Origin: an uncultured Bacillales bacterium
GTDB taxonomy: Bacteria > Bacillota_I > Bacilli_A > RFN20 > CAG-826
Direction of reading: 5' to 3'
Assembly (NCBI GenBank): GCA_937902735.1
Contig: CALELS010000015.1
Location: 154,744 to 218,743 of the forward strand
DNA: 64,000 nucleotides
This document shows, piece after piece, positions 4,354 to 38,984 of this stretch (within the stretch, counting starts at the first letter, position 1; each line of letters begins with the position of its first letter). Under the pieces are notes generated by a model that did no database searches, was not told the origin of the DNA, and was given only the letters and a program-made list of their open reading frames with translations. Made by a program: the position numbers and the translations under genes.

Positions 4354-4389
4354 AACATTAATTTTAATATCTTGAAGATATTTTTGAAA

Positions 4390-4436
4390 CAATATTGCAT
4401 AAAAAAGCGACACAATTCAAATTGGTCGCTTAATAT
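4390..4436 (-). terminator. Intrinsic terminator downstream of HIT gene
   Basis: Stem AAGCGAC/GTCGCTT followed by U-run on minus strand. Confidence 0.4.
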
Positions 4437-4455
4437 AAGAAATATAGATACCTAA

Positions 4456-4875
4456 CTACATTCCTTTTCTAACAATTTCGGCTATTAAAGGAAGATTTAA
4501 GTCTTTCTCGTTGTTTTCCTTCATTGTAATTTCAAAGCCTTCTTTTTTGGCGTATCTAGGGATTACATGAACATGGAAGTGATAAACGCTTTGACCTGCT
4601 TCTTTATTAACATTAGTTAAGACATTAACTCCTTTAGCACCTAAAACAGCAATATCAGCCTGACCAATGCGTTGAGCAACATCCATAACCTTATGCATTG
4701 TTTCTTTATCTACTGCTAAGAAGTTATCAAAATGTTCCTTTGGAATAACTAATGCATGACCTTTAGTAGTTTGTGATATATCTAAGAATGCAATCACATC
4801 ATCATCTTCATATATTGTGCTTGAAGGTATCTCATGATTAGCAATCTTACAAAATATGCAATCATCTTTTTTCAT
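4456..4875 (-). CDS. HIT-family (histidine triad) nucleotide hydrolase
   Basis: C-x-F-C N-terminal motif and HFHVHVIP histidine triad; RBS AAGGAG. Confidence 0.85.
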   Translation of the reverse strand: MKKDDCIFCKIANHEIPSSTIYEDDDVIAFLDISQTTKGHALVIPKEHFDNFLAVDKETMHKVMDVAQRIGQADIAVLGAKGVNVLTNVNKEAGQSVYHFHVHVIPRYAKKEGFEITMKENNEKDLNLPLIAEIVRKGM

Positions 4876-4892
4876 AATTAATTTCTCCTTAA

Positions 4893-4918
4893 AAGAAAGG
4901 AGGGCGTAAACCCTCCTA
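4893..4918 (-). terminator. Intrinsic terminator after upstream lipoprotein gene
   Basis: Minus strand AGGAGGG-TTTACG-CCCTCCT followed by TTTCTTTT. Confidence 0.55.
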
Positions 4919-4924
4919 AATCAA

Positions 4925-8714: not shown

Positions 8715-8975
8715 ATGAAACCTATTTCCTCCTTTAAACATAACGTTAACAATTCTATTACTTTGCTTGTATAAATACAACAAGAAAATATCAAAGAAAA
8801 TTGAGGCAATGTTTTATTTATAAAAAAGATTATTTATGGAAAATACACCGAAATGATTGGCAAAATGATAGAGTAAAGTTTCTAATCATTTGAAAAATGA
8901 GTAATTTTATAGGTAATATCGTTTGTAAATATTTTTTGTGGTGATTAGAATATTTACGTTTCAAGGAGAAAAGGT

Positions 8976-16154: not shown

Positions 16155-16304
16155 ATTCTTGTTTCAGGGTAAGGTGCAATTCCTAACCGGTGGTATACCC
16201 CACGAGCCAATAGGCAGATCTAGTGTAATTCTAGAGGCGACAGTAAAGTCTGGATGGAAGAAACATTTATGTTATGTTTGTTACCCTGAAATAGGGTATT
16301 TTTT
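16155..16304 (+). promoter_or_regulatory. FMN riboswitch (RFN element) whose terminator hairpin also sequesters the RBS
   Basis: CAGGGTAAGGTGCAATTCCTAACCGGTGGTA ... GCGACAGTAAAGTCTGGATGGAAGAAAC matches the RFN core (B. subtilis ribD: CAGGGUGAAAUUCCCGACCGGCGGUAGUAAAG ... GCCGACAGUGAAAGUCUGGAUGGGAGAAGGA). Followed by hairpin TACCCT-GAAA-AGGGTA plus T6 immediately before the ATG. Confidence 0.75.
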
Positions 16305-17006
16305 ATGATAAATTGGAATCAACTTGTTGGAATTATTGCCTTTCTTATTTGGGCTGTTTTTACTGCATTAATTTACAGAAGAGAACACAAGGATGAAGAA
16401 AAGAATATTGTTACTGTTAAATCTATTGCAAGAATTGGTGTATTTGGCGCAATTTCTACACTGTTATATGTAATCCCAATATTCAATATTCCAATTCCTG
16501 CAATTTTTCCAACATTTTTAAAATTTCACTTTGATGAAATACCTGCTTTAATTGCTGGTTTTGCCTTTGGCCCTTATAGTGCGTTGGGAATTATTTTAAT
16601 AAAAACATTAATCAAAATCCCATTAGGCGGCGCTACAACTATGTATGTTGGAGAAATCTCAGATTTCATTTATTCATGTGCCTTAATCCTCCCGGCAACA
16701 TTTATTTATCGAAAACACCGCAAATTTAAATTTGCTTTATTAGGTTTATCTATTGGCTTTGTAAGTCAAATTGTGGTCGCTTTATTCTTCAATATTTACA
16801 TTATGGTTCCAACATATATGAGATTGTTCTCTATGGACGAAAATGCGATTTTATCAATGATGCCACCATTTATTAAAAACCCAAGATGGTCTTATGGATT
16901 AATATCTGTTCTTCCATTCAATGTAATAAAGAACTTTATAGTTATTGCAATTACTTTAGTGATTTATAAACCACTACGTCGTTTGATTGAGAAAATTAAA
17001 GCATAA
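16305..17006 (+). CDS. ribU: ECF transporter substrate-specific (S) component, predicted riboflavin transporter RibU
   Basis: Small polytopic membrane protein with an S-component-like profile, directly downstream of the FMN riboswitch. Confidence 0.6.
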   Translation: MINWNQLVGIIAFLIWAVFTALIYRREHKDEEKNIVTVKSIARIGVFGAISTLLYVIPIFNIPIPAIFPTFLKFHFDEIPALIAGFAFGPYSALGIILIKTLIKIPLGGATTMYVGEISDFIYSCALILPATFIYRKHRKFKFALLGLSIGFVSQIVVALFFNIYIMVPTYMRLFSMDENAILSMMPPFIKNPRWSYGLISVLPFNVIKNFIVIAITLVIYKPLRRLIEKIKA

Positions 17007-20681: not shown

Positions 20682-21332
20682 ATGTCACCTGTACAAATGG
20701 AAGCTCTCGACTTCCGCTATCTATTACTTGAATATTATAAAAAGCTAAGGCTAAGTGAAAATGAATTAGCTGTAATTTTGATGATTGATCATCTTTTAGA
20801 GCAAAAAAATGTTTTAATTACACCTGATCTTTTATCTATTCGAATGAATCTTAAGATTAATGAAATTGACAAAATTATGGTTTCGTTGATTGATAAAGGT
20901 TTTCTTGACTATGATTTTTCAAAAAAAGTAAAAGTTTCTTTAAAACCTTTAAAAAAGGAATTGTATAAATATTTCCAAAACTCATTAGTTAAGGAACACG
21001 AAAATAGTTTCAATGAGAATAAAGCGGCGTTCTTAAAGAATATTTATGATGTCTTCGAAAAAGAACTTTCAAGATCTCTTTCTCCGCTTGAGATTTCGTT
21101 AATTGGAGAATGGGTTGATCAAGGATATACTGATGAAACTATTATAAATGCTTTAAAAGAAGCTCTTTCGAAAGGAAAGAAATCATTAAAATCTGTTGAT
21201 AAAATTTTGCTTCAATGGCAAGCAAGAGATGATTTAGAAAAGAATGGTTATACAACTATCTCTGAAAAATGGGATAAGAATATGGATGAAACCTTAAAAA
21301 TCATCAAAACTAAATGGGTTGATAATGACTAG
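20682..21332 (+). CDS. dnaD: DnaD-domain replication initiation/membrane attachment protein
   Basis: N-terminal winged-helix-like segment and C-terminal DDBH2-like region (LSPLEISLIGEWVDQGY ... KILLQWQARD); dnaD-nth adjacency as in B. subtilis. Confidence 0.55.
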   Translation: MSPVQMEALDFRYLLLEYYKKLRLSENELAVILMIDHLLEQKNVLITPDLLSIRMNLKINEIDKIMVSLIDKGFLDYDFSKKVKVSLKPLKKELYKYFQNSLVKEHENSFNENKAAFLKNIYDVFEKELSRSLSPLEISLIGEWVDQGYTDETIINALKEALSKGKKSLKSVDKILLQWQARDDLEKNGYTTISEKWDKNMDETLKIIKTKWVDND

Positions 21333-21942
21333 AAAATTAGAAGATATTTTTTCTTTTTTAGATAAAGAATATCCAAACGCTAAATGTGCTCTTAATTACA
21401 CGAAAGATTATGAGTTTTTAATTGCGGTTATGTTAAGCGCCCAAACAACAGATAACGCAGTGAACAAAGCAACTGCAGTTTTGTTTAAAAAATATCCAAC
21501 TATTGAATCACTTGCTAATGCAGATTTAAAGGATGTAACAAGAATCATTTCCTTCCTTGGAATGTACCAAAAGAAGGCAGAAAATGTTATCAGTATTTCA
21601 AAACTTTTAATTAGGGATTTTGATGGAAAAGTACCCAACAACCCCGCTTATTTGGTCACTTTACCTGGTGTTGGAAACAAAACTAAAAATTGTGTATTAG
21701 GTGAATTATATAATGTTCCTTTATTAGCTGTTGACACCCATGTTCAACGTATCTCAAAACGATTAAAACTTGTTGATGAAAATGATAGTGTGGAAACAAT
21801 CGAAAGAAAGCTGACAAAATTAATTCCGCAACAAAGATTAATTAAAACGAATCATCAAATTATTTGGTTTGGAAGATCCAGATGTAAAGCAATGCACCCA
21901 TTGTGTAAAGACTGCCCACTAGCAGAATACTGCAAATATTAA
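21319..21942 (+). CDS. nth: Endonuclease III (DNA glycosylase/AP lyase) with 4Fe-4S cluster
   Basis: HhH-GPD motif LPGVGNKTKNCVL and C-terminal CKAMHPLCKDCPLAEYC cluster. Confidence 0.85.
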   Translation: MIMTRKLEDIFSFLDKEYPNAKCALNYTKDYEFLIAVMLSAQTTDNAVNKATAVLFKKYPTIESLANADLKDVTRIISFLGMYQKKAENVISISKLLIRDFDGKVPNNPAYLVTLPGVGNKTKNCVLGELYNVPLLAVDTHVQRISKRLKLVDENDSVETIERKLTKLIPQQRLIKTNHQIIWFGRSRCKAMHPLCKDCPLAEYCKY

Positions 21943-22541
21943 AAATATTTTCTCTTAATTATAGGAAGATAATCTAAACGAGGTGAATAACCTCTTTTTA
22001 TTAATTCACCATTAAGTTTTATATCTTTATATGGAATTGATGCTCGTGGTTTACTCTCATAAAAATCAATTACATATTGAGCATCAATCAAATATGTTTC
22101 CTCATTGTTTTTGACAAATTCAATAATGAAAAATGCTATTCCTTTATGAGCAAGCACACCTTTTAAATGATTTATCTGTTGAAGAGGGATATTACTTAAT
22201 GAAAATGATGTTTTTGAATGAGTCGATTTGGCCTCAAAATCTATGTATTTTCCCATATATACTCCGTTATAATCTGTTGTAGATTGTTTTTCGAAATAAG
22301 CATTTGTGATAATTGCTCCTTTCGAATAATCAACCTTAACAACATTAATTGGAGTGGGTCTTTTTGTAACTAAGCATAAATTATTTTCTTTGTAATATTC
22401 GTTGGTTAAATTAATGTCATTTTCTAAATCCATTCCACGGTTACGTGTTGAAAGATGAAGTTTTGCACTAACTTCTTTTTTATTGTTTGTTTCATTTTTG
22501 ATAGCTTTTGTAGCTATTTTTCCGTTTGGGTAATTAATCAT
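21939..22541 (-). CDS. recU: Holliday junction resolvase RecU
   Basis: Close to B. subtilis RecU along the whole length (MINYPNGK ... NRGMDLENDIN ... KRPTP ... TTDYNGVYMGKYIDFEAK ... YSPRLDY). Confidence 0.85.
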   Translation of the reverse strand: MINYPNGKIATKAIKNETNNKKEVSAKLHLSTRNRGMDLENDINLTNEYYKENNLCLVTKRPTPINVVKVDYSKGAIITNAYFEKQSTTDYNGVYMGKYIDFEAKSTHSKTSFSLSNIPLQQINHLKGVLAHKGIAFFIIEFVKNNEETYLIDAQYVIDFYESKPRASIPYKDIKLNGELIKRGYSPRLDYLPIIKRKYF

Positions 22542-23269
22542 TATTCGACAGCCTTTTTAATAAGTTCATCAAATTCTTCAACTGTGATTGCTCGTTTCTC
22601 TTTGATGATTATCTCAAGCATGTCGTGTAGCGGAAGAGGGAGATGTCTTTGTTTTAGTAAAACATTGCGGTACTCTCTATCCAAAATATCTTTTCTCTCT
22701 ATAACTTTCTCGAATAAATAAACAAGATTATATGTATCTGCCAACGCATTATGTTGTTGGCCTTTAAAATCAAATTCAAAAACTTTTAATAAATTTGCTA
22801 GCGAATAATTATTTCCGTTTTCATCTAAAACATATCGAGAAATAAATTCTGCAAAATCAAAATTATGTTTAATCATTAAATGAACATCTTCTTTTGGAGC
22901 GTCCAAATTATACGCTAGAGATTGGGCTAAAATTCTTAAATCATGATTACCAAATGTAACAAATAAAACTTTAGAGAACTCTCTACCAAGATATTTTTTA
23001 AGTTCTTGGATAACTACTCTAAGTCTTTTACCTTTTTCTTTTAGATCAACTTCAGTAATTCCTGTTAAATCAGTAACAACTTTACCAATCTTGTTTTTTG
23101 CAATAACAAGTGAGTAATATCCTTTATGAATCTTTTTAATTGAACCATCTTTTTTTAAATCAACTTTAACTGCCCCAATAGCAATCATTTCATGAGAAAA
23201 TTGGGTTCCCTCTAAATCGAGGAAACATAATTTTTTGCGATTGTTGATTACTTTATTTAAGTCATTCAT
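22541..23269 (-). CDS. DEDDh 3'-5' exonuclease (DnaQ-like)
   Basis: Exo motifs FLDLEGT (I) and HNALADTYN (III); start placed at internal ATG 23269 (MNDLNK); stop overlaps recU start. Confidence 0.65.
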   Translation of the reverse strand: MNDLNKVINNRKKLCFLDLEGTQFSHEMIAIGAVKVDLKKDGSIKKIHKGYYSLVIAKNKIGKVVTDLTGITEVDLKEKGKRLRVVIQELKKYLGREFSKVLFVTFGNHDLRILAQSLAYNLDAPKEDVHLMIKHNFDFAEFISRYVLDENGNNYSLANLLKVFEFDFKGQQHNALADTYNLVYLFEKVIERKDILDREYRNVLLKQRHLPLPLHDMLEIIIKEKRAITVEEFDELIKKAVE

Positions 23270-23304
23270 AAATGCGAAAAATATAATATAGGAAAAAACA
23301 GACA

Positions 23305-23323
23305 AATACAAAATATTTGTATT
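23305..23323. promoter_or_regulatory. 19-bp palindrome AATACAAA-ata-TTTGTATT in the exo/recU versus gpsB divergent promoter region
   Basis: Perfect 8-bp arms read directly from sequence. Confidence 0.35.
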
Positions 23324-23351
23324 CTAAAATATATGCTTTATAATCATTTTC

Positions 23352-23714
23352 ATGGCGCACAAGTTGAACTTTACATCCAAGACTTTGCTCGAATATACAT
23401 TTGAAAAAAATGTAAGGGGCTATAATGCTTACCAAGTTGATAGCGTTCTTGATAAGGTAATCGAAGACCTACTATATTACGAAAATAGTGTCCAAGATTT
23501 AGAAAAAAAGAACGATAGACTTATTGCAAGATGTTCAACTCTTGAAGTCGAAGTTAAACAAAGAGATCTTAGGATTGCTGAGTTAACTAATAAACTTCCA
23601 TCTTTGAAGAACGATAAAAACATTTCGAGGGAAAATGTTAATCTTCTTAAAAGAATTGATGCCTTAGAAAAAGCCCTTTATCAAAAGGGTGTAGATCCCT
23701 CAAGAATTAAATAA
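23352..23714 (+). CDS. gpsB: DivIVA-domain cell-cycle protein GpsB
   Basis: DivIVA/GpsB N-terminal motif FEKNVRGYNAYQVDSVLDKVIED and coiled-coil; gpsB-rnpB adjacency as in B. subtilis. Confidence 0.65.
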   Translation: MAHKLNFTSKTLLEYTFEKNVRGYNAYQVDSVLDKVIEDLLYYENSVQDLEKKNDRLIARCSTLEVEVKQRDLRIAELTNKLPSLKNDKNISRENVNLLKRIDALEKALYQKGVDPSRIK

Positions 23715-24047
23715 TCTCCGACCTGGATAATTGCTTCGAAAGAAGAGGAAAGTCCATGCTCGCACTAACCTGTGATGGTAGTAGTGATTGTGCTAGCGGA
23801 AAAAATAACGCTAGGTATATGGGAGCATATAACGGCGAAACTAGTCTAAAACTTCGGTCATGATGATGTTTCTGAAAGTGCCACAGTGACGATATTGATA
23901 GAAATATCAATGTGGAACGGGTAAACCCCGCAAGCGAGAAACCCAAATTTGGTAGGGGAGGTTAGGAAAGAGAATCGAATCAATCCTAGCACACGTAAGT
24001 GTAGATAAATTATTATCCTAGACAAAACATGGCTTACAGGGTCGGAA
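23715..24047 (+). ncRNA. rnpB: RNase P RNA (type B, Bacillus-like, compact)
   Basis: GAGGAAAGTCCATGCTCGCAC, GAAAGTGCCACAGTGACGA, GGAACGGGTAAACCCCGCAAGCGAGAAACCCAAATTTGGTAGGGGA and ACATGGCTTACAGGG match B. subtilis rnpB almost base for base. P1 pairs TCCGACC with GGTCGGA. Confidence 0.9.
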
Positions 24048-24062
24048 CTCAAAAAGGAAACT

Positions 24063-24713
24063 ATGAACACACCAACTAAAATTACCGTTTCAAGAATTGC
24101 TCTAATTATCTTAATGTTATTAGGCTTATTTGTTTTGTCGTTCTTCCAAGGGTTTGAAATTTATGAAATCCCTTTAGGAAGTGTAAAGATTTCTGTTGTT
24201 TATTTAGTCTGTACAGTCATTTTTCTAGTAGCTGCTTTCACTGATTTTCTTGATGGTTACTTAGCTCGTAAAAATAATCAAGTTACTGATTTAGGAAAAT
24301 TCCTTGATCCTATTGCAGATAAACTTCTTGTTGATGGAATGATGATTTTCCTTTTAATCCCACAAGGATACGCTCCAAGTCATCAACGTGATTCTCTCTC
24401 AATTACTATATTAGCTTTCTGTGTAATCATTATGATTGCTAGAGATCTTATTGTTGATGCATTAAGATTAATTGCAGTTACTAAAAATCAAGTAATTGCA
24501 GCTAATATCTTTGGAAAAATGAAGACTGTTTTCCAAATGATTGCTATTCCTTTCTTATTATTAAATGATTTTCCATTTGCTTATTTTGATTCTTCTTGGC
24601 CTGATGCCTTAAGAATTAGTAATTTTATGTTCTATATTGCTACCATTATGAGTTTAGTCTCTGGCATAATTTATGTAGTACAAAACCATAAGGTTTTGAA
24701 AATGAAAAAATAA
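24063..24713 (+). CDS. pgsA: CDP-diacylglycerol--glycerol-3-phosphate 3-phosphatidyltransferase
   Basis: CDP-alcohol phosphatidyltransferase motif DFLDGYLARKNNQVTDLGKFLDPIADK; pgsA-cinA-recA synteny. Confidence 0.8.
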   Translation: MNTPTKITVSRIALIILMLLGLFVLSFFQGFEIYEIPLGSVKISVVYLVCTVIFLVAAFTDFLDGYLARKNNQVTDLGKFLDPIADKLLVDGMMIFLLIPQGYAPSHQRDSLSITILAFCVIIMIARDLIVDALRLIAVTKNQVIAANIFGKMKTVFQMIAIPFLLLNDFPFAYFDSSWPDALRISNFMFYIATIMSLVSGIIYVVQNHKVLKMKK

Positions 24714-24715
24714 AC

Positions 24716-25174
24716 ATGGATAAACTTCTTGAATTATTAAAAGAAAAGCACCTAACATTAGGTTCAATTGAATCAATGACTGGTGGTCTTTTTTCCGCCA
24801 CTTTTTGTGATGTTCCAGGCGCATCAAAAGTGTTCAAGGGTAGTATTGTTACTTATGCAACAAGCGAGAAAACAAGACTACTTGGAATGAATCCTCTAAC
24901 AATTGAAAAAGAAGGAGTTGTTTCAGAGGAAGTCGCTAAAGAAATGGCTCAAAAAGGAAAAGAAGTTTTAGATGTTGATGTTTGTGTATCAATCACTGGT
25001 AATGCCGGTCCAAGTGTTGAACCTGGAGGTAAACCAGTTGGTAGAGCATATGTTGGAATCTTTTATGCAGGTTTCACTAAAGTTTTTGAACTTAACTTAA
25101 AAGGCTCAAGAAATGAAATTAGAAAAGAAGCCATTTTTAAAATGGCTGATTTAGTAATTGAGACGATAAGATAA
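24716..25174 (+). CDS. cinA: CinA C-terminal domain protein (NMN deamidase PncC-like)
   Basis: LGSIESMTGGLF ... SITGNAGP motifs of the CinA C-terminal domain; 152 aa, so the N-terminal MocF domain is absent. Confidence 0.7.
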   Translation: MDKLLELLKEKHLTLGSIESMTGGLFSATFCDVPGASKVFKGSIVTYATSEKTRLLGMNPLTIEKEGVVSEEVAKEMAQKGKEVLDVDVCVSITGNAGPSVEPGGKPVGRAYVGIFYAGFTKVFELNLKGSRNEIRKEAIFKMADLVIETIR

Positions 25175-25237
25175 AGAATTTTTCACACTTTTTCTAAAAA
25201 ATCCGCTGATAGTATAAGTGTAGGAGAAAAAACGAAA
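25175..25237 (+). repeat. Copy A of a ~55-nt conserved 5' leader element (TTTTTCACAC-TTTTTCTAAAAA-TCC..CTGATAGTATAAGTGTAGG) ending in the recA RBS
   Basis: Near-identical to the element upstream of the ABC transporter at 34012-34068; palindromic core TTTTT(CT/AG)AAAAA. Confidence 0.5.
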
Positions 25238-26242
25238 ATGAATAAAAAAGTAACAAACTGCGAAAACATAGACGCTCTTGAGAGTGTTTTGAAAGACATT
25301 GAAAAAACATTCGGCAAGGGTTCTGTCATGAAATTAGGTCAAAGACCTACTGTTGATGTTAACGCTATTCCTTCTGGTTCACTTTTGGTTGATCAAGCTC
25401 TTGGTATTGGCGGATACCCACGTGGACGTATTGTTGAGATTTATGGTCCAGAGTCATCCGGAAAAACTACTCTTGCTTTGACTGCAATTGCAGAATGTCA
25501 GAAAAAGGGCGGAAAAGCCGCTTTTATTGATGCTGAACATTCTATTGATCCGGTGTATGCAAAGAATCTTGGCGTTAATATCAATGAATTAATTTTGTCA
25601 CAACCAGATTGTGGTGAGGAAGCTCTTGAAATAGTAAATATGTTAGCAAGTAGCACTGCTATTGATTTAATTATTGTTGATTCAGTTGCAGCATTAGTAC
25701 CACAAGCCGAAATTGAAGGTGAAATGACCGATAATACCGTCGGAGGACAAGCTAGACTTATGTCTAAAGCTTTACGAAAACTCGCCAGTGTATTAAACAC
25801 AAACCAATGCACGATTATCTTTATTAATCAATTACGTGAAAAAGTAGGCGTTGTCTATGGAAATCCAGAAACAACCACTGGTGGACGTGCATTAAAGTTT
25901 TATGCTTCAGTTAGAATTGATATTCGTAGAGCAGATGCCATCAAAGATGGTTCTGAGGTTGTCGGAAATACAGTCAATGTTAGAATTGTAAAAAATAAAG
26001 TTGCACCACCATTCAAAAATGCGCAAATCGAAATCATTTATGGCAAGGGTATTTGTAAGAATTCCGAAATACTTAGTCTAGGTGTTGATCTTGGCATTAT
26101 CAAAAGATTTGGAAGCTGGTACGAATATAACGGCAACAGATTTGCGAATGGCAAAGAAGCTGGAAAACGTTATCTAGATGAACATCCAGAATTAGCGGAA
26201 GAATTAATTAAACTAATAACTACTGGCGAAATCCAAAAGTAA
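25238..26242 (+). CDS. recA: Recombinase RecA
   Basis: Walker [11 protein letters not shown]1/L2 loops, 334 aa. Confidence 0.95.
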
Positions 26243-26489
26243 GATTTGTAAGAACTCTCGTAAGGGAGTTTTTATTTTATAATTTTGTTTTAAAACAACG
26301 TTCGTATTGTTATAATACTTTCGTATCTCTTGAAGATACTTATTCATAGATTATCTGATAAATTCCATTATTCGATAAATTCTATATTCATCTTAATATA
26401 TGTCGATTTTTTGATATTCTTTTGAATAATAAGATGATTTTTTTGAAACTTATCTATTTATAGATAATCTCATTAAAAGGAGGACAAAA
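26243..26489 (+). promoter_or_regulatory. rny promoter and long structured leader (extended -10 TGTTATAAT, hairpin GTATCT/AGATAC, direct repeats GATAAATTC x2, palindrome TATCTAT-TT-ATAGATA before the RBS)
   Basis: All elements read directly; 247-nt AT-rich intergenic region. Confidence 0.4.
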
Positions 26490-28103
26490 ATGAACTTTTT
26501 AGAAAACATTGTTTTTGCGTCCATTGTCGATCTTGATGCATTAGGTATCTTATTCATCATCATCCTTTCAGTTCTCACTTTAATTATCGGAGCAGGTGTT
26601 ACTGCTCTAATCTTCATTTTTCTTCCTATTATTAAAGGAAAGAAAGCAGAAAAGAAATCTGAAAAGATTATTCGTGATGCTGAAATTAAAGCCGAACAAA
26701 TACGTAAAAACGCTCAACTTGATGGTAAACAAACCGTTCAAGAACTCAAAGCCGAAGCTGAGAAAGATATTCGTGAAAGAAAACAAGAATATGCTCAACT
26801 CGAAAACAAACTCAATCAACGCGAACAAAACATTGATCGTCGTGATGCTAACTTAACAAACAAAGAACAAGCAATTGAATCCAAAAATGAACTTCTTAAT
26901 CACAGACTCAAAGAATGTGATAAGAAAGAAGCAATTCTTCAAGAGAAGATTGATTCAATCATTGTCGAACTTGAAAAAGTTGCCCAACTTTCAGTTAATG
27001 AAGCAAAAACTGAAATCTTTAATCGTGTTGAATCAAAAATGTCTCGTGAAATTGCTCTTTATATGAAAAACAAAGAAGAAGAGGCTGAAAGAACAGCCGA
27101 AGAAAAGGCTAAAAATATTTTAGGACAAGCTATTTCTAAATTCTCACAAGACGAAGTCAGTGAACGTACAGTAAGTGTAATCCCATTACCAAGCGACGAA
27201 ATGAAAGGTCGTATCATTGGTCGTGAAGGAAGAAACATTCGCTCATTTGAACAATTATTAGGAGTTGACTTAATTATTGATGATACTCCAGAAGTTATTA
27301 CTGTTAGCTGCTTTAATCCAATCCGTCGTGAAATGGCAAGACGAGTCCTCGATATTTTAATTAAGGATGGTCGTATTCAACCAGGACGCATTGAAGAAGT
27401 TGTTGCTAAAGTACAAGCTGATATGGATGCTCAAATCCAAAAAGCTGGTGAAGATGCAGCCTTTAAACTTGGCTTACCTAAGATTAATCGTGAACTTTTA
27501 ACATATGTTGGAAGACTAAAATACCGTACTTCCTATGGTCAAAATGCTTATGATCACTCGATGGAAGTCGCCTATCTTGCTGGCATTATGGCAGCAGAAC
27601 TTGGTCTTGATCAAAATCTCGCTAAACGTGCCGGTTTATTACACGATATTGGTAAATCCGTTGATTTCGAACAAGAAGGAAGTCACGTTGAACTTGGCGC
27701 TCACCTTGCAAAGAAATATGGTGAACCAGATGTTGTTATTAACTCCATTGAATCTCACCATGGTGATGTTCCAGCCAAATCAGTAATTGCTAACTTAGTC
27801 CAAGCTGCTGATACTTTAAGTGCTGCTCGTCCTGGCGCTAGAAGTGAAACGCTTGAAAACTATGTTAGAAGAATTGAACAACTTGAAGACATTTGTAAAT
27901 CTTATGAAGGTGTTTATCAATGCTTTGCTATGCAATCTGGTCGCGAAGTCCGTGTTATGGTTCTTCCAGATAAGATTGATGATGTTCAAGCATTTAAGAT
28001 GGCTCACGATATAAAAGAGCGCATTGAAAATGAAATGACATATCCAGGTCAAATTAAAGTCTCCGTTATTCGTGAATATCGTGCTATAGAAACTGCTAAA
28101 TAA
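26490..28103 (+). CDS. rny: Ribonuclease Y
   Basis: N-terminal TM anchor, coiled-coil, KH domain ([15 protein letters not shown]) and HD domain (LLHDIGK); recA-rny-ymdB synteny. Confidence 0.9.
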
Positions 28104-28105
28104 TT

Positions 28106-28888
28106 ATGAGAATCCTTTTCTTTGGTGATATTGTTGGTCGTGTTGGTCGACGTGCGATAAAAACATATATCGATAAACTTGTGGAAAAATACCACATTGA
28201 TTTTGTTATTGCTAATGGCGAAAACGCAACACATGGAAAAGGATTAATTGAAAAACATTACAACGAATTAATTGATGCCGGCGTTGATTGCATTACCCTA
28301 GGTAATCATTATTTATCTAAGTCAGATATTAATAATTACATTGATGATGCAACTTGTCTTGTTAGACCAGCCAATTTATTAAATAGCTTTGGTGGCGTCG
28401 GCTCAATTATATTCGATGTAGGAGGCACAAAGGTCAGGGTTAGTAACATTCTTGGTTCGGCTTTTATGAAAGAAGAAGTTAGTAATCCTTATCTTTCATT
28501 GAAAGAAATTATTTCTGAAAGTGACCCTTGTATTCATATTGTTGATTTTCATGCTGAAGCAACTGGTGAAAAAATGTGTTTTGCATATGCTTTTGATGGA
28601 CAAGTTTCAGCTGTTTTAGGTACACATACTCACGTTCAAACTAATGATGCAAGAATACTAGATAATGGAACTGCATTTATTAGCGATGTTGGAATGTGTG
28701 GTGCATACAATGGCGTTCTTGGTTTTGATAAAGAAAGTGTAATGAACAAAACATTATTTGGTAGTGAAACAAGATTTTCAATTAATGAAAATGACACACC
28801 ACTTATAAGTGCAGTTGTTTTAGATATTGATGAACTTACATTTAAAACTAAAGAATTTTTCTCGCTTTATATTAAAGGAGAGAATTAA
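28106..28888 (+). CDS. ymdB: 2',3'-cyclic-nucleotide phosphodiesterase YmdB (metallophosphoesterase)
   Basis: MRILFFGDIVGRVGRRA ... VIANGENATHGKG ... LGNH calcineurin-like motifs; YmdB family. Confidence 0.8.
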   Translation: MRILFFGDIVGRVGRRAIKTYIDKLVEKYHIDFVIANGENATHGKGLIEKHYNELIDAGVDCITLGNHYLSKSDINNYIDDATCLVRPANLLNSFGGVGSIIFDVGGTKVRVSNILGSAFMKEEVSNPYLSLKEIISESDPCIHIVDFHAEATGEKMCFAYAFDGQVSAVLGTHTHVQTNDARILDNGTAFISDVGMCGAYNGVLGFDKESVMNKTLFGSETRFSINENDTPLISAVVLDIDELTFKTKEFFSLYIKGEN

Positions 28889-30330
28889 TGGCAAATAAAT
28901 GCGAATATAAATCTCTTCCTGATGCAAAAATGGCTAGAAATCGCACTAGTCATTTTGATTTTGATTATTCATCAATCGAGATTGATCAAAGAGTTAAAGA
29001 ATTTGCCAAAGGAAAAACATATTTTATTCATACATATGGTTGTCAGGCTAACTATCGTGATGAAGAAACCCTCTCTGGTTTATTAGAAGAGATGGGTTAT
29101 AAGAAAGCCAAAAGCATTGAAGAAGCAGATTTCATCTTGCTTAATACATGTGCTGTTAGAGAAAATGCTGAACAAAAAGTTTATGGTCAAATTGGTAATC
29201 TAAAAGCGCTTAAACAATCCAATATAGATAAGATTATTGCTATATGTGGATGTATGGTTCAACAAGAACACATCATCAAATTTATTATGGATACATACAA
29301 GCATGTTGATCTTATTTTTGGCACTCATAATATTGAAGAATTACCTAACATGATTTTAGAGGTAATTACTAAAAAGGTGCGACTTGTTAATGTAAAATCG
29401 CTTCCTGAAAAGATAAAAGAAGAACTTCCAAGTGTAAGACTTTCTTCCTTTAAAGCATTTGTAAACATCTCTTATGGTTGTGATAAATTCTGTACATATT
29501 GCATTGTTCCATACACAAGAGGAAAAGAACGTTCTCGCAAGATGGATGATATTCTTAAAGAATGCCAAGAATTGAAAGACTTAGGATATAAGGAAGTCAC
29601 CTTGTTAGGTCAAAACGTTAACGCTTATGGAAAAGACTTCAATGATGGAACAACTTTTGCAAAACTTCTTGATGAAGTAGCAAAAATTGGAATGCCTCGC
29701 GTTAGATTCTTAACTTCTCATCCATGGGATTTTAAAGATGAGATGATTGATGTAATTGCAAAACATAAAAATATCATGAAATACATTCATCTTCCTGTTC
29801 AATCTGGTAATGATGAAATTTTAAAAAGGATGAATAGACGTTATACGTCAAAAGAATATTTAGAAATTGTCCGTAAAATAAGAGAAAGAATTCCTGATGT
29901 GTATTTGTCCACAGATATTATTGTTGGATTTCCAAATGAAACTTATGAACAATTCTTGGATACTGTAAAAATTGTTGAGCTTGCAAAATATGACTCTGCA
30001 TTTACTTTTATTTATTCGCCTAGAAAGAACACGCCTGCTGCTACTATGCCAGATAATGTCTCTAGCAAGGAAAAATCTGCCAGATTTAAAGAACTTGTAA
30101 CTGCCTTAGAAAAAACAATTAAAGTCTCTTCGGATAAGATGGTTGGAAACACCTATGATGTTTTAGTGGAAACTGTCTCTGAAAAAGATCCATCTATGAT
30201 GTCTGGATACACTGAAGGTAACAAATTAGTTCATTTTAAAGGTGATTCCTCCTACATTGGAAAGATTGTTAAAATCAAAATAAATGAATCTCATCTTTAT
30301 TCGTTAATAGGAGATCTTGTTAATGAATAA
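28888..30330 (+). CDS. miaB: tRNA-i6A37 methylthiotransferase MiaB (radical SAM)
   Basis: UPF0004 N-domain (TYGCQAN), radical-SAM CxxxCxxC (CDKFCTYC), TRAM C-terminus. Confidence 0.85.
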   Translation: MANKCEYKSLPDAKMARNRTSHFDFDYSSIEIDQRVKEFAKGKTYFIHTYGCQANYRDEETLSGLLEEMGYKKAKSIEEADFILLNTCAVRENAEQKVYGQIGNLKALKQSNIDKIIAICGCMVQQEHIIKFIMDTYKHVDLIFGTHNIEELPNMILEVITKKVRLVNVKSLPEKIKEELPSVRLSSFKAFVNISYGCDKFCTYCIVPYTRGKERSRKMDDILKECQELKDLGYKEVTLLGQNVNAYGKDFNDGTTFAKLLDEVAKIGMPRVRFLTSHPWDFKDEMIDVIAKHKNIMKYIHLPVQSGNDEILKRMNRRYTSKEYLEIVRKIRERIPDVYLSTDIIVGFPNETYEQFLDTVKIVELAKYDSAFTFIYSPRKNTPAATMPDNVSSKEKSARFKELVTALEKTIKVSSDKMVGNTYDVLVETVSEKDPSMMSGYTEGNKLVHFKGDSSYIGKIVKIKINESHLYSLIGDLVNE

Positions 30331-30634
30331 TTTAGAAAAAAACATACAAGAAGTCTCTTCAATTATTGATAATCACCCACTTGTGAAGGAATATTTATCT
30401 TTAAAAAAGCAAATATGTTCTAGTGAAGAAATAAGCCTATTAGAAAAAGAAATAGTAATTCATCAAAAAGAGATGACTAAGAATTTGAATAATGATGAAA
30501 TCTATTTTAAAGAAAAAGAGATATATGATTCTTTAAAAAAGAAATATGATTCTAACCCTTTGATAATAAATTTTAATGCTGTAAGTGAGGAACTTTATTC
30601 GTTTCTAAACGAAATTAAAGAAGCAATTGAATAA
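30317..30634 (+). CDS. ymcA: YmcA/YlbF-family protein (RicA-like)
   Basis: Helical 105-aa protein immediately after miaB (ymcB-ymcA synteny in B. subtilis). Confidence 0.4.
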   Translation: MLMNNLEKNIQEVSSIIDNHPLVKEYLSLKKQICSSEEISLLEKEIVIHQKEMTKNLNNDEIYFKEKEIYDSLKKKYDSNPLIINFNAVSEELYSFLNEIKEAIE

Positions 30635-31508
30635 TATGATAGTTGTAATTGTAGGTCCTACTGGTGTTGGGAAGTCAAAATTTGCTCTAGAGTTAGCTCC
30701 TTTAATCAACGCTGAAATTGTCAATGGTGATGCTTTTCAAATTTATAAAGAAATGAATATTGGAGTGGCAAAACCACCAAAAGAATATTTTGAGAAGGTT
30801 CCTCATCATTTATATAGTTTTGTTTCAATTGACACCCCATATTCTATTAAGGAATATCAAAGTGATGCTAGAAAAGTGATTGATGAAATTCTTTCTAAAA
30901 AGAAAAATGTCATTATTGTTGGAGGAAGTGGATTATATATCCGTTCAGCCTTATATGATTATGAATTTCAAAATTCAACTTTTGTTGATATGTCCAAATA
31001 TGAAAAAATGAATAATTTAGCTCTTCATCATGAGCTTGAAATGATAGATCCTATTGATGCCGCTAAAATTCATCCTAATAATAGGAGAAGAGTTTTAAGA
31101 AGCATACAAATTTATTTAGAAAATGGAGAAAGTAAATCGAGTCTTATTTCTAAGCAAAAACATGAGCCTATTTATGAAAATACCTTATTTGTGATGCCAA
31201 ATTTTGATAAAGAAGAGTTATATAATAACATTAACTCTCGAGTAGATATAATGATAAAAGAAGGCTTACTTGATGAGGTGGCTCAACTTTATAAAACATA
31301 CAAAGATAATCAAGCAATGGAAGCAATTGGATATAAAGAATTTGTTCCATATTTTAATAATGAAATTTCATTAGAAGATGTAATCGATAAAATAAAACAG
31401 GACACTAGAAATTACGCTAAACGTCAAATCACTTTTTTCAAATATCAGTTTGAACTAAAAAGATTTGATAACTTAAATGAATTATTGGAGATAGTTAAAA
31501 ATGTCTGA
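30627..31508 (+). CDS. miaA: tRNA dimethylallyltransferase MiaA
   Basis: P-loop VGPTGVGKS and conserved NGDAFQIYK; 293 aa. Confidence 0.85.
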   Translation: MNNMIVVIVGPTGVGKSKFALELAPLINAEIVNGDAFQIYKEMNIGVAKPPKEYFEKVPHHLYSFVSIDTPYSIKEYQSDARKVIDEILSKKKNVIIVGGSGLYIRSALYDYEFQNSTFVDMSKYEKMNNLALHHELEMIDPIDAAKIHPNNRRRVLRSIQIYLENGESKSSLISKQKHEPIYENTLFVMPNFDKEELYNNINSRVDIMIKEGLLDEVAQLYKTYKDNQAMEAIGYKEFVPYFNNEISLEDVIDKIKQDTRNYAKRQITFFKYQFELKRFDNLNELLEIVKNV

Positions 31509-34068: not shown

Positions 34069-36177
34069 ATGATAACTTACCGTCTTGATAACGTATCCAA
34101 ATCGTTTGGAAGTGATAAATCCAAATTTTATGCGTTAAGAAACATAAATATTCTTTTTCCTTCAAAAGGACTAGTTGTAATAGCAGGTAAATCGGGCAGT
34201 GGGAAATCAACTCTTCTAAACATTCTCATGGGAATTGAAAAAATTAGTGAAGGAAATATCTATTTTGAGAATAAAAAGATTAATAAACAAAATGATAAAG
34301 AGCTTTCTCACTTCCACTTGAATAAAGTATCGATGATATATCAACATTACAATTTGTTGGATGAACTAACGTCAATTGAAAATGTTTGTCTTCCATTGAT
34401 GATGAAAGGCTATTCACTAAATGAAGCAAAAAAAGAGGCAAAGACATTTTTTCAAGATTTAGATATTGAACCTTTAGAAAATAGAAGGGTTTCAACTTTA
34501 AGTGGAGGAGAGAAACAAAGAATAGCTATCATTAGAGCAATTATTTCAAAACCACAAGTTCTATTATGCGATGAACCTACTGGTGCACTTGATACTAAAA
34601 ACGGTAACGAAATTATGAAAATATTAAAAAAGTTATCAAAAAGTATTCTTGTTATCATGGTTTCACACAATGAGAACCAGATTAAAAAATATGCTGATAG
34701 AAAAATCTATTTAAAAGATGGAATGATTGAAAAAGATGATGGTAAGAATAACGTTAATCTAGATTATAGTGTTACAAAGCACAAATACAAATATTCATCA
34801 CTTTGGAAAAGGTTTGTTTTAAAGATTCATCTAAAAGAGAATCTAAAAAAGAACATATTTTCCTTTATTGTTTTGACTTTTGGATTAGTTGTTTCGTTTT
34901 TATCAATTGGTTTTGTAACTTCTTCATCGAAGTCTTTTGATAATTTGTTATATCAATCAGTTAGCTCGTGCTCTGGGAAAATTAGCGATGAAACAGTAGT
35001 TAAAATAAACAACTCTCCACTCAATTTTATCAAGGTTGTGCGGCCAAATTTGAATGAAATAGAAGATAATCTTGATGATATTAACTCTCTAAAAATAATG
35101 AATAATTATGAGTTTCTATTTTTAAATTATCCAGAAACAACATTTAATAAGAAACTAGTAGATCCACCAACCTTGATACCTGTGTATTCGTTCAATAATA
35201 ATCAAATAATAGAATCTCTTTTGGTCGAGGGTACCATTCCATTAGTAGACACAATAGAAGAGGTGATTATAAATGAAGAATTTGTTAAGTCTTTAAAACT
35301 TACGAATAAAGAAGCAATAAATAAAGAGATTGTTATTTCATCAATTAGAGAAATTAGTATATCTACTGGAGATAGTTCGAATCCTTTTATTAAAGATAAT
35401 TTTTCATACAACATAACGTTAATAATAAGAGGAGTAGTTAAAGAGTTTGGCTTTTTAAATAGCCCGAAAGTCTATTATTCTAACATCGGTCTTGAACGTT
35501 ATTTATCCAATCAGATAATGTTAAATTATTCTAAATATTGTCAACAAAGAATTTCCTATAAAACCTACTTTGAAACACTAGATAACAATAACCAAATTAC
35601 ATCCTATTCATATTTATTATTTGTAGATAACAATCAAGATATTAATAAACTATATTCAAATTTTAAAAATCTAAAAAATGCAGAAATTTCATTAACGATC
35701 GATTCTTCGTTTTTCGAGTCGTATTCTTCGTATAGAAGTTTAATAGATACCTTCTCGTATGCTCTTTTGGCTTTTTCAGTTATTTGTTTTTTAGGAATTA
35801 ACCTAATTTTGGGTATGCTTTCTTTATCTTCTTTTATTAAAAAGAAAAAAGAATCTGCAATTCTGACCTGTATAGGAGCCACAAATAGTTCAATTAAAAC
35901 GTTATTTCTTAATGAAATACATTTAGTCTTAATCTTTGCTTTTATTAGTTCTATTGGACTTTCGTTGTTGTTTGAAAGACTTTTAAATCCATTATTTGAA
36001 AAGTCATATGGATTAGAAAATCTCTTTTATATTCCGTTTTTAAATTTTAACGGAGTCCCTTTTCTACTACCTATTGGTTTATTAATTCTTTTTCTAGTAA
36101 TTTCATCATTATTTATTTTGATACCAATTTCAATTTATAAATCTAAATCAATTAGTGAAGAGTTGAGGGATGAATAA
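34069..36177 (+). CDS. Fused ABC transporter ATPase + FtsX-like permease (MacB family)
   Basis: N-terminal Walker A GKSGSGKST, signature LSGGEKQR, Walker B LLCDEPTGALD; C-terminal 4-TM FtsX-like domain. Confidence 0.8.
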   Translation: MITYRLDNVSKSFGSDKSKFYALRNINILFPSKGLVVIAGKSGSGKSTLLNILMGIEKISEGNIYFENKKINKQNDKELSHFHLNKVSMIYQHYNLLDELTSIENVCLPLMMKGYSLNEAKKEAKTFFQDLDIEPLENRRVSTLSGGEKQRIAIIRAIISKPQVLLCDEPTGALDTKNGNEIMKILKKLSKSILVIMVSHNENQIKKYADRKIYLKDGMIEKDDGKNNVNLDYSVTKHKYKYSSLWKRFVLKIHLKENLKKNIFSFIVLTFGLVVSFLSIGFVTSSSKSFDNLLYQSVSSCSGKISDETVVKINNSPLNFIKVVRPNLNEIEDNLDDINSLKIMNNYEFLFLNYPETTFNKKLVDPPTLIPVYSFNNNQIIESLLVEGTIPLVDTIEEVIINEEFVKSLKLTNKEAINKEIVISSIREISISTGDSSNPFIKDNFSYNITLIIRGVVKEFGFLNSPKVYYSNIGLERYLSNQIMLNYSKYCQQRISYKTYFETLDNNNQITSYSYLLFVDNNQDINKLYSNFKNLKNAEISLTIDSSFFESYSSYRSLIDTFSYALLAFSVICFLGINLILGMLSLSSFIKKKKESAILTCIGATNSSIKTLFLNEIHLVLIFAFISSIGLSLLFERLLNPLFEKSYGLENLFYIPFLNFNGVPFLLPIGLLILFLVISSLFILIPISIYKSKSISEELRDE

Positions 36178-38984
36178 TGATTGAAATCAAGAATATAAGA
36201 AAATCATATAATGAAAATTATGTTTTAAAAAACATTGATTTAACGCTACCTAATAAAGGACTTTTAATTATTGAAGGCGAATCAGGAAGCGGAAAAACAA
36301 CATTATTAAACATTATTGGCGGAATAATAAAACCAAGTGATGGAATAGTATCAATTGATGGAATAAATATAAACGAGCTATCCGATAAGGATTTAGATAC
36401 TTTTAGAATTAAAAATATCGGTTATGTATTTCAATCGTTTAATCTTTTGGAACTCGAAACTGTATTTGATAATGTACGAATGCCATTAGAATCAATTTCT
36501 AATTCACCTAGTTATATTATTAATAAAAGAGTAGAAGATTTACTCCAAGAATTATCAATAAAAAAATTAAGAAAAAAGCAAATTAACAGGCTTTCTGGTG
36601 GAGAAAAACAAAGAGTTGCAATCGCAAAAGCACTAATAAATAATCCAAAAATAATTCTTTGTGATGAGCCTACAGGTGCTCTTGATATAAACAACACAAA
36701 GAATATATGTGAGATCCTTAAACAAGTATCCATTCATTCTTTAGTAATAGTTGTCACACATGATGTTCAATCTTTTAAAGATTATGCTGATCGAATTATT
36801 TCAATTAAAGATGGACATGTTACGAAGGACATAGAATTAAACAATAAATATAATAAGCACAGATCACTCTTAGTGGTAGGAACGTCTAAACTACAAAAAA
36901 AGTCATATCTTCCTTTAAGTTTTAAGATTAAACATGCTTTTCATAAAATCTCATCAAAAAAGTGGAGATTTATGATTTCGAATTTTATGTTATCTCTTTC
37001 AATAACTGGCATAGGATTATCTTTTCTAGTTTCCTTTAGTCTTGCTGATAAGATACAAACAGCATTTTCTTCATTATTGAATGGCAACCAAATATTGGTT
37101 ACATCCCGAAATCAAGCTATGAACGATTTTGGCGCTGTTTATTCAATAAATGAAAATGATATTAAAGATATATACGAAAGATATATTTCATATCTTAATG
37201 GAGCAGGAGTTTCTTATTTAATAAACTTCGAAGATTTCTTTAAGGATGGAAATAATGTTTATATAAATGATGATAAATATTCAAATCTTATTCCTTCTTT
37301 ATCTGCCAGATCATTTAATGATTACACTTGGATTGATGAAAACATTAGAAGACAAATATCTCCTTCAATTAATGATGAATTAGATAAAGATGAAGTTGTT
37401 TTGGCCCTAACCTATGTTGACATGATTAACATAACTTACAATTTAAAAATTCAAAGGAATTTTGAGTCTTTAGCAAACTATATTTATCATAATGATCTAA
37501 CATTAACTTTAAGTGTTTCAAATTCATCGTGGCAGTATTCAGATGAACAGATATTCAATATTGTAGGTGTATATGAAGATGAAAATACACATCTTAGTCA
37601 AACAAGAAAATTGTGGAATCAAGAAATCTTTGAAGAAGAGATGCGGTTTCCTTCAAATGATGGGAGTCAATCATATTTTCCTTGGGAAATGTACAAAATA
37701 CATTATTTAAATACTAAGGGTAATTCATCTTCTTTTTTAGATGCCATAATGAATGATGATTTACTTTATGACTATGTATTTGAAAGAACAAGTTATGATA
37801 TTCATCCTTCAATATGTCCTATCAACGAACCATGTAAAGCGAATCGTGTAATTGTATATTCAGTTGATAAAAATACAATTCGAACTGGAGTATTACTAGA
37901 TATATTAAGAAGAAATGATAATTTTAAAAACTATTTTTTCATGTCTAATGGCGGGTATGTAAGTTATGGTTCAATGATACTCGATGGATTTGCTAATCAA
38001 ACTTTTTTCTCTATTTCTCTAGAAAAAAATGAAACTGCAATAGATGCTGATTTATCAAGAGGTGACGATGAAACCTTATCTTTAGATTTACCAAAAGGTG
38101 TTCTTAAAGGATATTTTATGGAGGCTATGAACGATGGGGTTAAATTCTCAACAAAATATGATAATTTAGTTTCTGGAAGAGAAGCTTTAAACAACAAAGA
38201 AATAGTAATTTCAAAAGCAATGGCAGATAAACTTGATAATGGATTTGATGTATTAAATTCTTATTTATTCATCTCCTCATTAGTGCCTTCTGTGAATGGC
38301 GATTTAACGAAAAACTACCGCACAAGTCGTGTAAAAATTGTTGGAATAGCAGATTCAAATAAAAATGTCATATATCACAATTCAAACTGGACAATTTCAT
38401 TTTTTAGAGATGAATTGGGAATGTCATCGTTTCTTCTTTGCCCAAACGCTTTAGTAATTGAACTTGACAAAAGTATTGATCCCTTGCCTTATATTAATCG
38501 GTTAAATAAAACGTATTACGATTTTAAATTTTCAAGCCCATTAGAGGATATAAAGAATAGTATTAACTCAACATTAGATTTTATAAAACTAATAGTTATC
38601 TTATTTTCTATTTTGGCAGGTTCAATTTCTTTACTTCTTTTATCAACATTGTTGTTACTAAATTTTTTAGAGAATGAGCATGAGGTAAAAATTTTTAAAT
38701 ATAGTGGGATCTCATATAGTGATATTAATTCTCAATTTATAGTTGATTCATTGCTACAAACATTTATAGCTTTTGTAATTTCAATGATTGAATTAATTGT
38801 TGTTGATGTCGTTAGTGGCCAAGCAATAAACGAAATGTTGGGAATAAGTGGGAGTTTCTCGCTCGATTTCCTCCCATTGTTACTAACGTTTGTAATAACA
38901 ATATCTACTTCTTATCTATTATCTAAAGCAATTGTTTTAGTGAAGATATTAACCGAGAAAAAGCAAAAGATGAAAAAGACATGA
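36177..38984 (+). CDS. Fused ABC transporter ATPase + FtsX-like permease with ~500-aa extracytoplasmic domain (MacB family)
   Basis: Walker A GESGSGKTT, LSGGEKQR, ILCDEPTGALD; TM1, then a long extracytoplasmic region, then C-terminal FtsX-like TM bundle. Confidence 0.8.
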   Translation: MIEIKNIRKSYNENYVLKNIDLTLPNKGLLIIEGESGSGKTTLLNIIGGIIKPSDGIVSIDGININELSDKDLDTFRIKNIGYVFQSFNLLELETVFDNVRMPLESISNSPSYIINKRVEDLLQELSIKKLRKKQINRLSGGEKQRVAIAKALINNPKIILCDEPTGALDINNTKNICEILKQVSIHSLVIVVTHDVQSFKDYADRIISIKDGHVTKDIELNNKYNKHRSLLVVGTSKLQKKSYLPLSFKIKHAFHKISSKKWRFMISNFMLSLSITGIGLSFLVSFSLADKIQTAFSSLLNGNQILVTSRNQAMNDFGAVYSINENDIKDIYERYISYLNGAGVSYLINFEDFFKDGNNVYINDDKYSNLIPSLSARSFNDYTWIDENIRRQISPSINDELDKDEVVLALTYVDMINITYNLKIQRNFESLANYIYHNDLTLTLSVSNSSWQYSDEQIFNIVGVYEDENTHLSQTRKLWNQEIFEEEMRFPSNDGSQSYFPWEMYKIHYLNTKGNSSSFLDAIMNDDLLYDYVFERTSYDIHPSICPINEPCKANRVIVYSVDKNTIRTGVLLDILRRNDNFKNYFFMSNGGYVSYGSMILDGFANQTFFSISLEKNETAIDADLSRGDDETLSLDLPKGVLKGYFMEAMNDGVKFSTKYDNLVSGREALNNKEIVISKAMADKLDNGFDVLNSYLFISSLVPSVNGDLTKNYRTSRVKIVGIADSNKNVIYHNSNWTISFFRDELGMSSFLLCPNALVIELDKSIDPLPYINRLNKTYYDFKFSSPLEDIKNSINSTLDFIKLIVILFSILAGSISLLLLSTLLLLNFLENEHEVKIFKYSGISYSDINSQFIVDSLLQTFIAFVISMIELIVVDVVSGQAINEMLGISGSFSLDFLPLLLTFVITISTSYLLSKAIVLVKILTEKKQKMKKT

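Follow-up and report, generated by a model that had tools for sequence, protein, structure and literature searches.

GpsB has been studied as an adaptor that positions penicillin-binding proteins (PBPs), and it has been considered as an antibiotic target. In this work, we analyzed a 64-kb stretch of contig CALELS010000015.1 (hereafter the window), from an uncultured bacterium of the class Bacilli, in which a gpsB gene lies within a compact block of housekeeping genes and the PBP gene expected nearby is missing. The closest described proteins are those of Bacillus subtilis and Listeria monocytogenes (PDB 4UG3, 4UG1, 6GP7 and 6GPZ), with which the GpsB of the window shares the N-terminal DivIVA-like domain with its conserved RGY loop and groove, the coiled coil, and the C-terminal helix signature N-x-x-LLKR-x-x-LE-x-x-φ. 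It differs from them in its length (120 amino acids (aa), as compared to approximately 98), in its longer and variable coiled coil and in an extra invariant tail, and also in that its lineage is predicted to be devoid of PBPs, so that the canonical clients would be missing. A PBP-independent task has been described for the same groove, where the tail of FtsZ is recognized by an (S/T/N)-R-x-x-R-(R/K) or R-x-x-R motif: in Staphylococcus aureus, FtsZ binds the GpsB groove via a C-terminal (S/T/N)RxxR(R/K) motif (PMC11062636), and in B. subtilis GpsB provides accessory anchoring of the Z-ring even in the absence of PBP1 (bioRxiv 2024.05.11.593517). The first-pass annotation of this DNA, which held the function of GpsB without PBPs to be unclear, was in that respect overstated. 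Moreover, a GpsB/DivIVA gene has likewise been kept in a wall-less, reduced, Bacilli-derived genome, that of Mycoplasma mycoides JCVI-syn3.0, where MMSYN1_0353 adjoins dnaD (MMSYN1_0352) and lies near HU (MMSYN1_0350) (PMC4993169). The neighborhood is the same as in the window, but the annotation of MMSYN1_0353 is in silico only, the two genes are likened by annotation and neighborhood, and Mycoplasma reads UGA as Trp.

The best explanation for the locus, to which we assign a probability of about 60%, is that it belongs to a reduced-genome member of the family CAG-826 predicted to lack peptidoglycan, in which ponA has been lost and gpsB has been maintained as a PBP-independent membrane adaptor. 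Both the wall loss in RFN20/CAG-826 and the occurrence of GpsB-like genes in wall-less Mycoplasma had been published before, and the value added here is thus incremental; new are the ponA excision scar, the family-wide purifying selection on a GpsB with an unchanged groove, the C-terminal tail of this protein, and a candidate client.

We first consider the PBP gene. An operon formed by recU and a PBP gene is documented in S. aureus, Streptococcus pneumoniae and B. subtilis (PMC3584850). Relatives of the window were collected by an RNase Y scan of the GTDB species representatives, which retrieved 42 loci, and a Solobacterium sp. of the order Erysipelotrichales (L029) was taken as the walled comparator. 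In the latter, recU is followed by a 690-aa open reading frame (ORF) that encodes a class A PBP (Transglycosylase, 1e-54; Transpeptidase, 1.6e-25). Its start codon and the stop codon of recU overlap, and gpsB, pgsA and recA come next in the usual order. In the window, recU has the same orientation relative to dnaD-nth as in the recU-ponA (recU-pbp2) operon of walled Firmicutes, but the PBP gene is gone, as it is in approximately 25 CAG-826 loci, and nth abuts recU without a gap in all of them. The two genes converge, and in the window their 3' ends overlap by 4 nucleotides (nt; 21939-21942), therefore leaving no room for a ponA remnant. As the walled comparator keeps the PBP after recU, and as the recU-PBP operon is documented, the missing PBP is a genuine loss in the RFN20-type loci, in agreement with the earlier proposal that ponA is missing after recU, with nth in its place. 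The accompanying claim that every PBP gene had been deleted went further than the window allows, as only one ancestral PBP site, the one after recU, can be examined there. The loss of ponA is common to all RFN20-type loci sampled and is, on its own, not diagnostic of wall-lessness. In mechanistic terms, walled Firmicutes transcribe a class A PBP gene together with recU, and here this gene would have been excised without trace and the housekeeping block compacted by deletions; the excision from the recU operon may then be seen as a tidy synteny scar of one independent wall loss in Bacilli.

The gpsB gene, on the other hand, has been retained. Its product matches the GpsB model NF010725 over profile positions 4-105 of 111 (62.2 bits) and TIGR03544 at 28.7 bits, above the cutoff of 22, while the match to PF05103 (DivIVA; 4e-06, 27.3 bits) falls just short of the cutoff of 28; the precomputed Pfam annotation of the protein does include this domain. 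It also matches the GpsB N-terminal domains in PDB at 7e-6. Residues V21-R22 of the membrane loop and Y24, D30 and D34 of the client groove align with their B. subtilis counterparts (Y25, D31 and D35 in the groove of the latter), and Y24, D30 and D34 are invariant in 13 close and approximately 22 distant orthologues. Conservation is concentrated in the N-terminal domain, with the pattern F..(K/R)GY..(E/Q)VD..LD..DY, and in the C-terminal helix, N-x-x-LL-x-R-I-x-x-LE-x-x-LY, together with the tail that follows it, the central coiled coil being variable. This helix is of the short, oligomerizing type specific to GpsB, which stands in place of the long C-terminal domain of DivIVA. The motif N-x-x-LLKRI-x-x-LE-x-x-LY aligns with the corresponding C-terminal sequence of B. 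subtilis GpsB, NFDILKRLSNLEKHVF. After the helix, an invariant, lineage-specific tail G-V-D-P-S-K/R-I-K is found (23685-23714; GVDPSRIK in the window), which is kept across the low-GC and high-GC genera of CAG-826 and is absent from the GpsB proteins of B. subtilis and Solobacterium. An AF2 model of the protein (pLDDT 82) has helices at residues 9-14 and 26-86, a hairpin at 19-24 and a separate C-terminal helix at 93-111; its best Foldseek match was 6gpz (GpsB), followed by Wag31, with weak scores (E = 0.25) that agree with the sequence evidence without adding to it.

Moreover, gpsB is present in 27 of the 28 loci spanning the site, only L023 being rearranged; in three of them (L009, L025 and L026) it was found by translation and tblastn, and the last two lie in sequence of 53% GC. 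The ratio of nonsynonymous to synonymous substitution rates (dN/dS) was 0.08-0.12 in unsaturated pairs, similar to those of recU, pgsA and recA, values that are approximate as dS was 0.85-1.3, close to saturation. Judged from its sequence, gpsB is a functional, divergent and selectively maintained GpsB and not a relic, because its frames are intact, dN/dS is around 0.1 and its domains are conserved; the first-pass annotation had rightly listed it as kept. As for its expression, a promoter-like site, TTGTAT-17-TATAAT (within 23317-23354), ends 6 nt before the ATG, and no Shine-Dalgarno sequence is found, so that the mRNA may be leaderless. At the other end of the gene, rnpB starts 4 nt after the stop codon, a spacing that suggests either co-transcription or an internal promoter.

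Regarding the organism, the best RNase Y matches (74-82% identity) come from rumen, horse and human gut metagenome-assembled genomes (MAGs) labelled 'Bacilli', 'Bacillales UBA...' or 'Erysipelotrichaceae', and no Acholeplasma was found among the close RNase Y matches in the scan of GTDB species representatives. One of the matches is MAG UBA3207 (L011), with 80% RNase Y identity and identical synteny, whose genus appears under o__RFN20;f__CAG-826 in the supplementary data of Field, Bowerman & Hugenholtz 2024 (PMC10868615). More distant, with 62% RNase Y identity, is 'Ca. Enteromonas' (L026), also assigned to RFN20/CAG-826 (PMC8035907). Bracketed by these members at approximately 80% and 62% identity, the window is placed by sequence similarity in the GTDB order RFN20, family CAG-826, class Bacilli. 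The organism had earlier been described as a wall-less, Acholeplasma-like descendant of a Bacillus-like ancestor. The Acholeplasma affinity was not upheld, as the nearest relatives are RFN20/CAG-826 MAGs and it is Mycoplasmatales, and not Acholeplasmatales, that Field et al. place beside RFN20 (PMC10868615). The standard genetic code, with TGA as a stop, is shared with Acholeplasma but is not specific; of the 72 ORFs of the window, 5 end in TGA, and translation under table 11 gives conserved genes at full length.

The wall-less part of that description is in line with genome surveys, which predict the lineage to be deficient in peptidoglycan. Most species of CAG-826 and CAG-288 were reported to 'encode none' of the genes for peptidoglycan (PMC10868615), and of the RFN20 genomes surveyed by Wang et al. 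2020, 14% carried mraY and 5% murG (PMC7301438). In agreement with this, domain scans of ORFs of the 64-kb window, its 10 largest membrane proteins and lipoproteins included, gave no match to Transpeptidase, Transglycosylase or any further wall domain. The window thus resembles the CAG-826 material of Field et al. 2024, being from the same kind of MAGs (UBA3207, Enteromonas), with signs of a small, reduced genome and no wall genes in the sequence seen; it departs from that work in that their text mentions neither GpsB or DivIVA nor local synteny scars.

Given an organism of this kind, GpsB would still be a membrane-associated, oligomeric adaptor, but its clients would now be other than PBPs. 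The most likely client would be the C-terminal tail of FtsZ, with GpsB giving the Z-ring an accessory anchor of the kind reported from S. aureus and B. subtilis. Further possible clients would be small membrane proteins with an N-terminal arginine helix, such as the 105-aa tail-anchored protein encoded just upstream of cmk, which has positional orthologues at the same place in 9 loci. A profile search recovered a lineage-restricted family of 37 protein clusters, all of 93-120 aa and without Pfam hits. Its members are most alike at the very N-terminus, which reads [ST]R-x-x-[KR]-[YF]-x-x-[YL]-R and in which R4 and R12 never change. The motif starts with TRISRY in the window and with SRVEKY or TRVERF in relatives, as compared to SRVERR in B. 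subtilis YpbE. Known GpsB-client motifs are SRxxR(R/K), of which the YpbE sequence is an example, and the listerial TRxxYR (PMC6335420). No match to the strict pattern [STN]RxxR[RK] was obtained in a scan of all window ORFs. Like YpbE and YrrS of B. subtilis, the 105-aa protein is a single-pass membrane protein with a cytoplasmic N-terminus that starts with an [ST]R-x-x-[KR] motif; it differs from them in that it ends at the transmembrane segment, without an extracellular LysM or DUF1510 domain, and in that the sixth motif position is aromatic and not R/K. The profile search started from this family returned only the 37 short, Pfam-less clusters, with no homology to YpbE/YrrS and no LysM-bearing homologue. 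We therefore put the protein forward as a candidate GpsB client as a hypothesis only.

A more specific proposal, which we make tentatively and consider rather doubtful, is that the core function of GpsB is PBP-independent in the peptidoglycan-free CAG-826, where the intact groove and the gained GVDPSKIK tail would tether FtsZ and/or the family of the 105-aa protein to the membrane, this family being perhaps what a YpbE/YrrS-type client became once its wall-binding ectodomain was lost. If true, CAG-826 would represent a natural 'PBP-free' background for defining the ancestral GpsB interactome. More generally, a lineage that discarded its wall while keeping GpsB under purifying selection, with its groove unchanged, argues for a conserved GpsB function beyond PBPs, and offers a clean system for finding non-PBP clients.

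Several points weigh against a PBP-independent GpsB in a wall-less CAG-826 member. The GpsB score of 62 bits is below the NF010725 equivalog cutoff of 91, which makes the protein a divergent member and not a curated equivalog, and the selection estimates are, as said, approximate. The placement in CAG-826 was made by similarity to labelled MAGs and not by formal phylogeny. The lack of PBP, SEDS, Mur and MraY proteins across the genome is taken from family-level literature, our own survey covering 64 kb, and the wording of Field et al. is 'most species', not all (PMC10868615). Moreover, the Z-ring proposal draws on an R-x-x-R motif known from the FtsZ tails of other species, and the candidate client motif, [ST]RxxK[YF]xxYR, is similar but not identical to the validated SRxxR(R/K) and TRxxYR. 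Finally, an intact PBP-binding groove would be equally expected if some PBP had survived.

This last point leads to the possibility that the organism is not fully wall-less, that its losses are limited to the class A PBP linked to recU, and that GpsB docks a minimal peptidoglycan machine encoded elsewhere in the genome (e.g., a pair formed by a SEDS protein and a class B PBP, or a low-molecular-weight PBP). The perfect conservation of the groove residues would be readily explained in this way, and one PBP client can suffice, as GpsB of S. aureus binds only PBP4 (PMC11062636). Furthermore, even walled Erysipelotrichales lack most of the Bacillus PBPs according to Field et al., who report the lack of wall genes in 'most', and not all, CAG-826 species; the presence of mraY in 14% of RFN20 genomes and the limited diagnostic value of the ponA loss, common to all sampled RFN20-type loci, point in the same direction. 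Nevertheless, CAG-826 as a family is predicted to be peptidoglycan-deficient, the window is bracketed by CAG-826 relatives at 80% and 62% identity, and none of the scanned ORFs of the 64-kb window has a wall-related domain. Altogether, we regard a surviving PBP client as unlikely.

It could also be argued that GpsB works here as a general DivIVA-type scaffold, in curvature or septum sensing, chromosome segregation or division-site selection, independently of the arginine-binding groove, which would be kept by structural constraint. Its N-terminal domain is indeed DivIVA-like (PF05103), Wag31 is among the fold matches, the JCVI-syn3.0 homologue is annotated as GpsB/DivIVA and linked to division and DNA functions, and the invariant, lineage-specific C-terminal tail hints at a new surface for interactions outside the groove. 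However, D30 and D34, which are GpsB-specific groove residues, are invariant here and are not known to be conserved in DivIVA. In addition, the C-terminal helix fits the GpsB model (the NF010725 match described above) and not DivIVA, and we thus consider such a scaffold quite improbable as the main role of the protein. The view of gpsB as a decaying relic, kept only for read-through transcription into the rnpB gene that begins 4 nt past its stop codon and encoding a protein without function, could draw on its faster evolution (30-45% identity across loci, versus 60-80% for its neighbors), but was rejected as extremely improbable on dN/dS and on the conservation pattern, given a frame intact in 27 of 28 loci and invariant residues in both terminal domains, with only the coiled-coil linker varying.

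The first-pass annotation had also argued that pbpX was deleted between recA and rny. This argument did not hold. No PBP remnant was found in the 247-nt recA-rny spacer, which contains only a terminator-like hairpin and a promoter-like site, and pbpX is also missing between recA and rny in the walled comparator. The presence of pgsA-cinA-recA upstream of rny has been described as generally conserved in Gram-positive bacteria (PMC3328962), and a pbpX gene beside recA has been described for B. subtilis 168 alone (PMC4374399). Adjacency of recA and rny is, therefore, not supported as a signature of PBP deletion. In a few relatives, inserts are found between recA and rny or beside recU, and the possibility that these are PBPs was rejected, as none of them is: they encode an AAA/DUF4143 protein, a phosphofructokinase and proteins that have no Pfam match and whose signal sequences look lipoprotein-like by eye, and further inserts, judged by eye without a domain scan, encode a multi-pass membrane protein and a large surface protein.

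Every gene named in the earlier annotation was confirmed at its position by NCBIfam and Pfam profile searches, and by Rfam in the case of rnpB (Table 1), and the order also agrees: dnaD-nth, then recU and the exonuclease on the opposite strand, then gpsB-rnpB-pgsA-cinA-recA-rny-ymdB-miaB-ymcA-miaA. The window has a GC content of approximately 30-35% and uses the standard genetic code. The extended order cmk-der-hup-cca-dnaD-nth-recU(-)-exo(-)-gpsB-rnpB-pgsA-cinA-recA-rny-ymdB-miaB-ymcA-miaA-tcdA-fhs is found again in approximately 25 independent MAG loci, with RNase Y identities of 61-82% and GC contents of 30-54%, and the exonuclease is kept in all loci compared. This gene order is not due to chance, because it recurs in some 25 independent loci including a subgroup of 51-54% GC, and the interpretation of the block as a reduced version of the Bacilli housekeeping synteny is upheld.

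Table 1. Features of the 64-kb window discussed in the text, ordered by position.
Feature	Positions	Strand	Match or remark
Three large ORFs	2989-8783	-	474, 615 and 679 aa
FMN (flavin mononucleotide) riboswitch and membrane protein gene	16156-17006		RF00050, 107 bits
Small tail-anchored membrane protein, 105 aa	17346-17663	+	cytoplasmic N-terminal part, C-terminal transmembrane segment; just upstream of cmk
CCA-adding/poly(A)-polymerase family protein, 202 aa	20050-20658	+	PF01743, residues 20-140
dnaD	20682-21332	+	Pfam DnaB_2 4.4e-15, DnaD_N 2.1e-12
nth (endonuclease III)	21319-21942	+	TIGR01083, 225 bits, cutoff 211.7
recU (Holliday junction resolvase)	21939-22541	-	PF03838 1.7e-54; NF002584 5.9e-64
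DEDD/RNase T-family exonuclease	22541-23311	-	PF00929 7.2e-13; upstream of recU, same strand
gpsB orthologue, 120 aa	23352-23714	+	NF010725 5.4e-17
rnpB, RNase P RNA class B	23719-24041	+	RF00011, 269 bits, 2.3e-78
pgsA	24063-24713	+	TIGR00560, 160 bits, cutoff 109
cinA, 152 aa	24716-25174	+	PF02464 1.3e-45; C-terminal PncC/CinA domain only
recA	25238-26242	+	TIGR02012, 505 bits
recA-rny spacer, 247 nt	26243-26489	none	terminator-like hairpin 26248-26275, promoter-like site 26289-26316
rny (RNase Y)	26490-28103	+	TIGR03319, 673 bits
ymdB-type metallophosphoesterase	28106-28888	+	TIGR00282, 289 bits
miaB (ymcB)	28888-30330	+	Pfam UPF0004, Radical_SAM, TRAM
ymcA (Com_YlbF)	30317-30634	+	PF06133 2.3e-07; adjacency to miaA kept across loci
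miaA	30627-31508	+	directly after ymcA
Two tandem ABC ATPase-FtsX fusions	34069-38984	+	702 and 935 aa

Further observations were made on the block and its surroundings. The loci with the same synteny fall into two groups of approximately 30-33% GC (among L001-L023) and 51-54% GC (L024, L025, L026, L028 and L039), 'Ca. Enteromonas' being in the latter, which is a wide compositional range for one gene block. Moreover, miaA comes directly after miaB-ymcA (30317-31508), both in the window and at every related locus. In B. subtilis, cotE-mutS-mutL lie between ymcA and miaA, and by comparison this block seems to have been stripped of its mismatch-repair genes. The B. subtilis map also has the gpsB-rnpB adjacency, ymcB-ymcA-cotE-mutSL, and ribU...ypbE...cmk.

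Two of the proteins encoded in the block are shorter than usual. CinA covers positions 262-410 of the full-length model, which has 414, the N-terminal MoCF-type domain being missing. The CCA-adding/poly(A)-polymerase family protein has the head domain only; dnaD begins 24 nt past its gene, leaving no space for the body and tail domains, and a size of 201-204 aa is kept in all RFN20-type loci, at 46-62% identity. This protein may represent a minimal nucleotidyltransferase.

Outside the block, each of the two large tandem proteins listed last in Table 1 consists of an ABC ATPase domain fused to an FtsX-like permease domain, and the first of the pair is kept in related loci at 29-46% identity; fusions of this type are Mollicutes-like. 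Near the beginning of the window, the three large ORFs on the reverse strand have lipoprotein-like signal sequences (by eye) and are without a significant Pfam or NCBIfam match, the 474-aa one having an acidic, low-complexity linker after the lipobox. Finally, the FMN riboswitch lies upstream of a gene for a 233-aa membrane protein without an NCBIfam hit which, judged from its position, is presumably a RibU-type riboflavin transporter.

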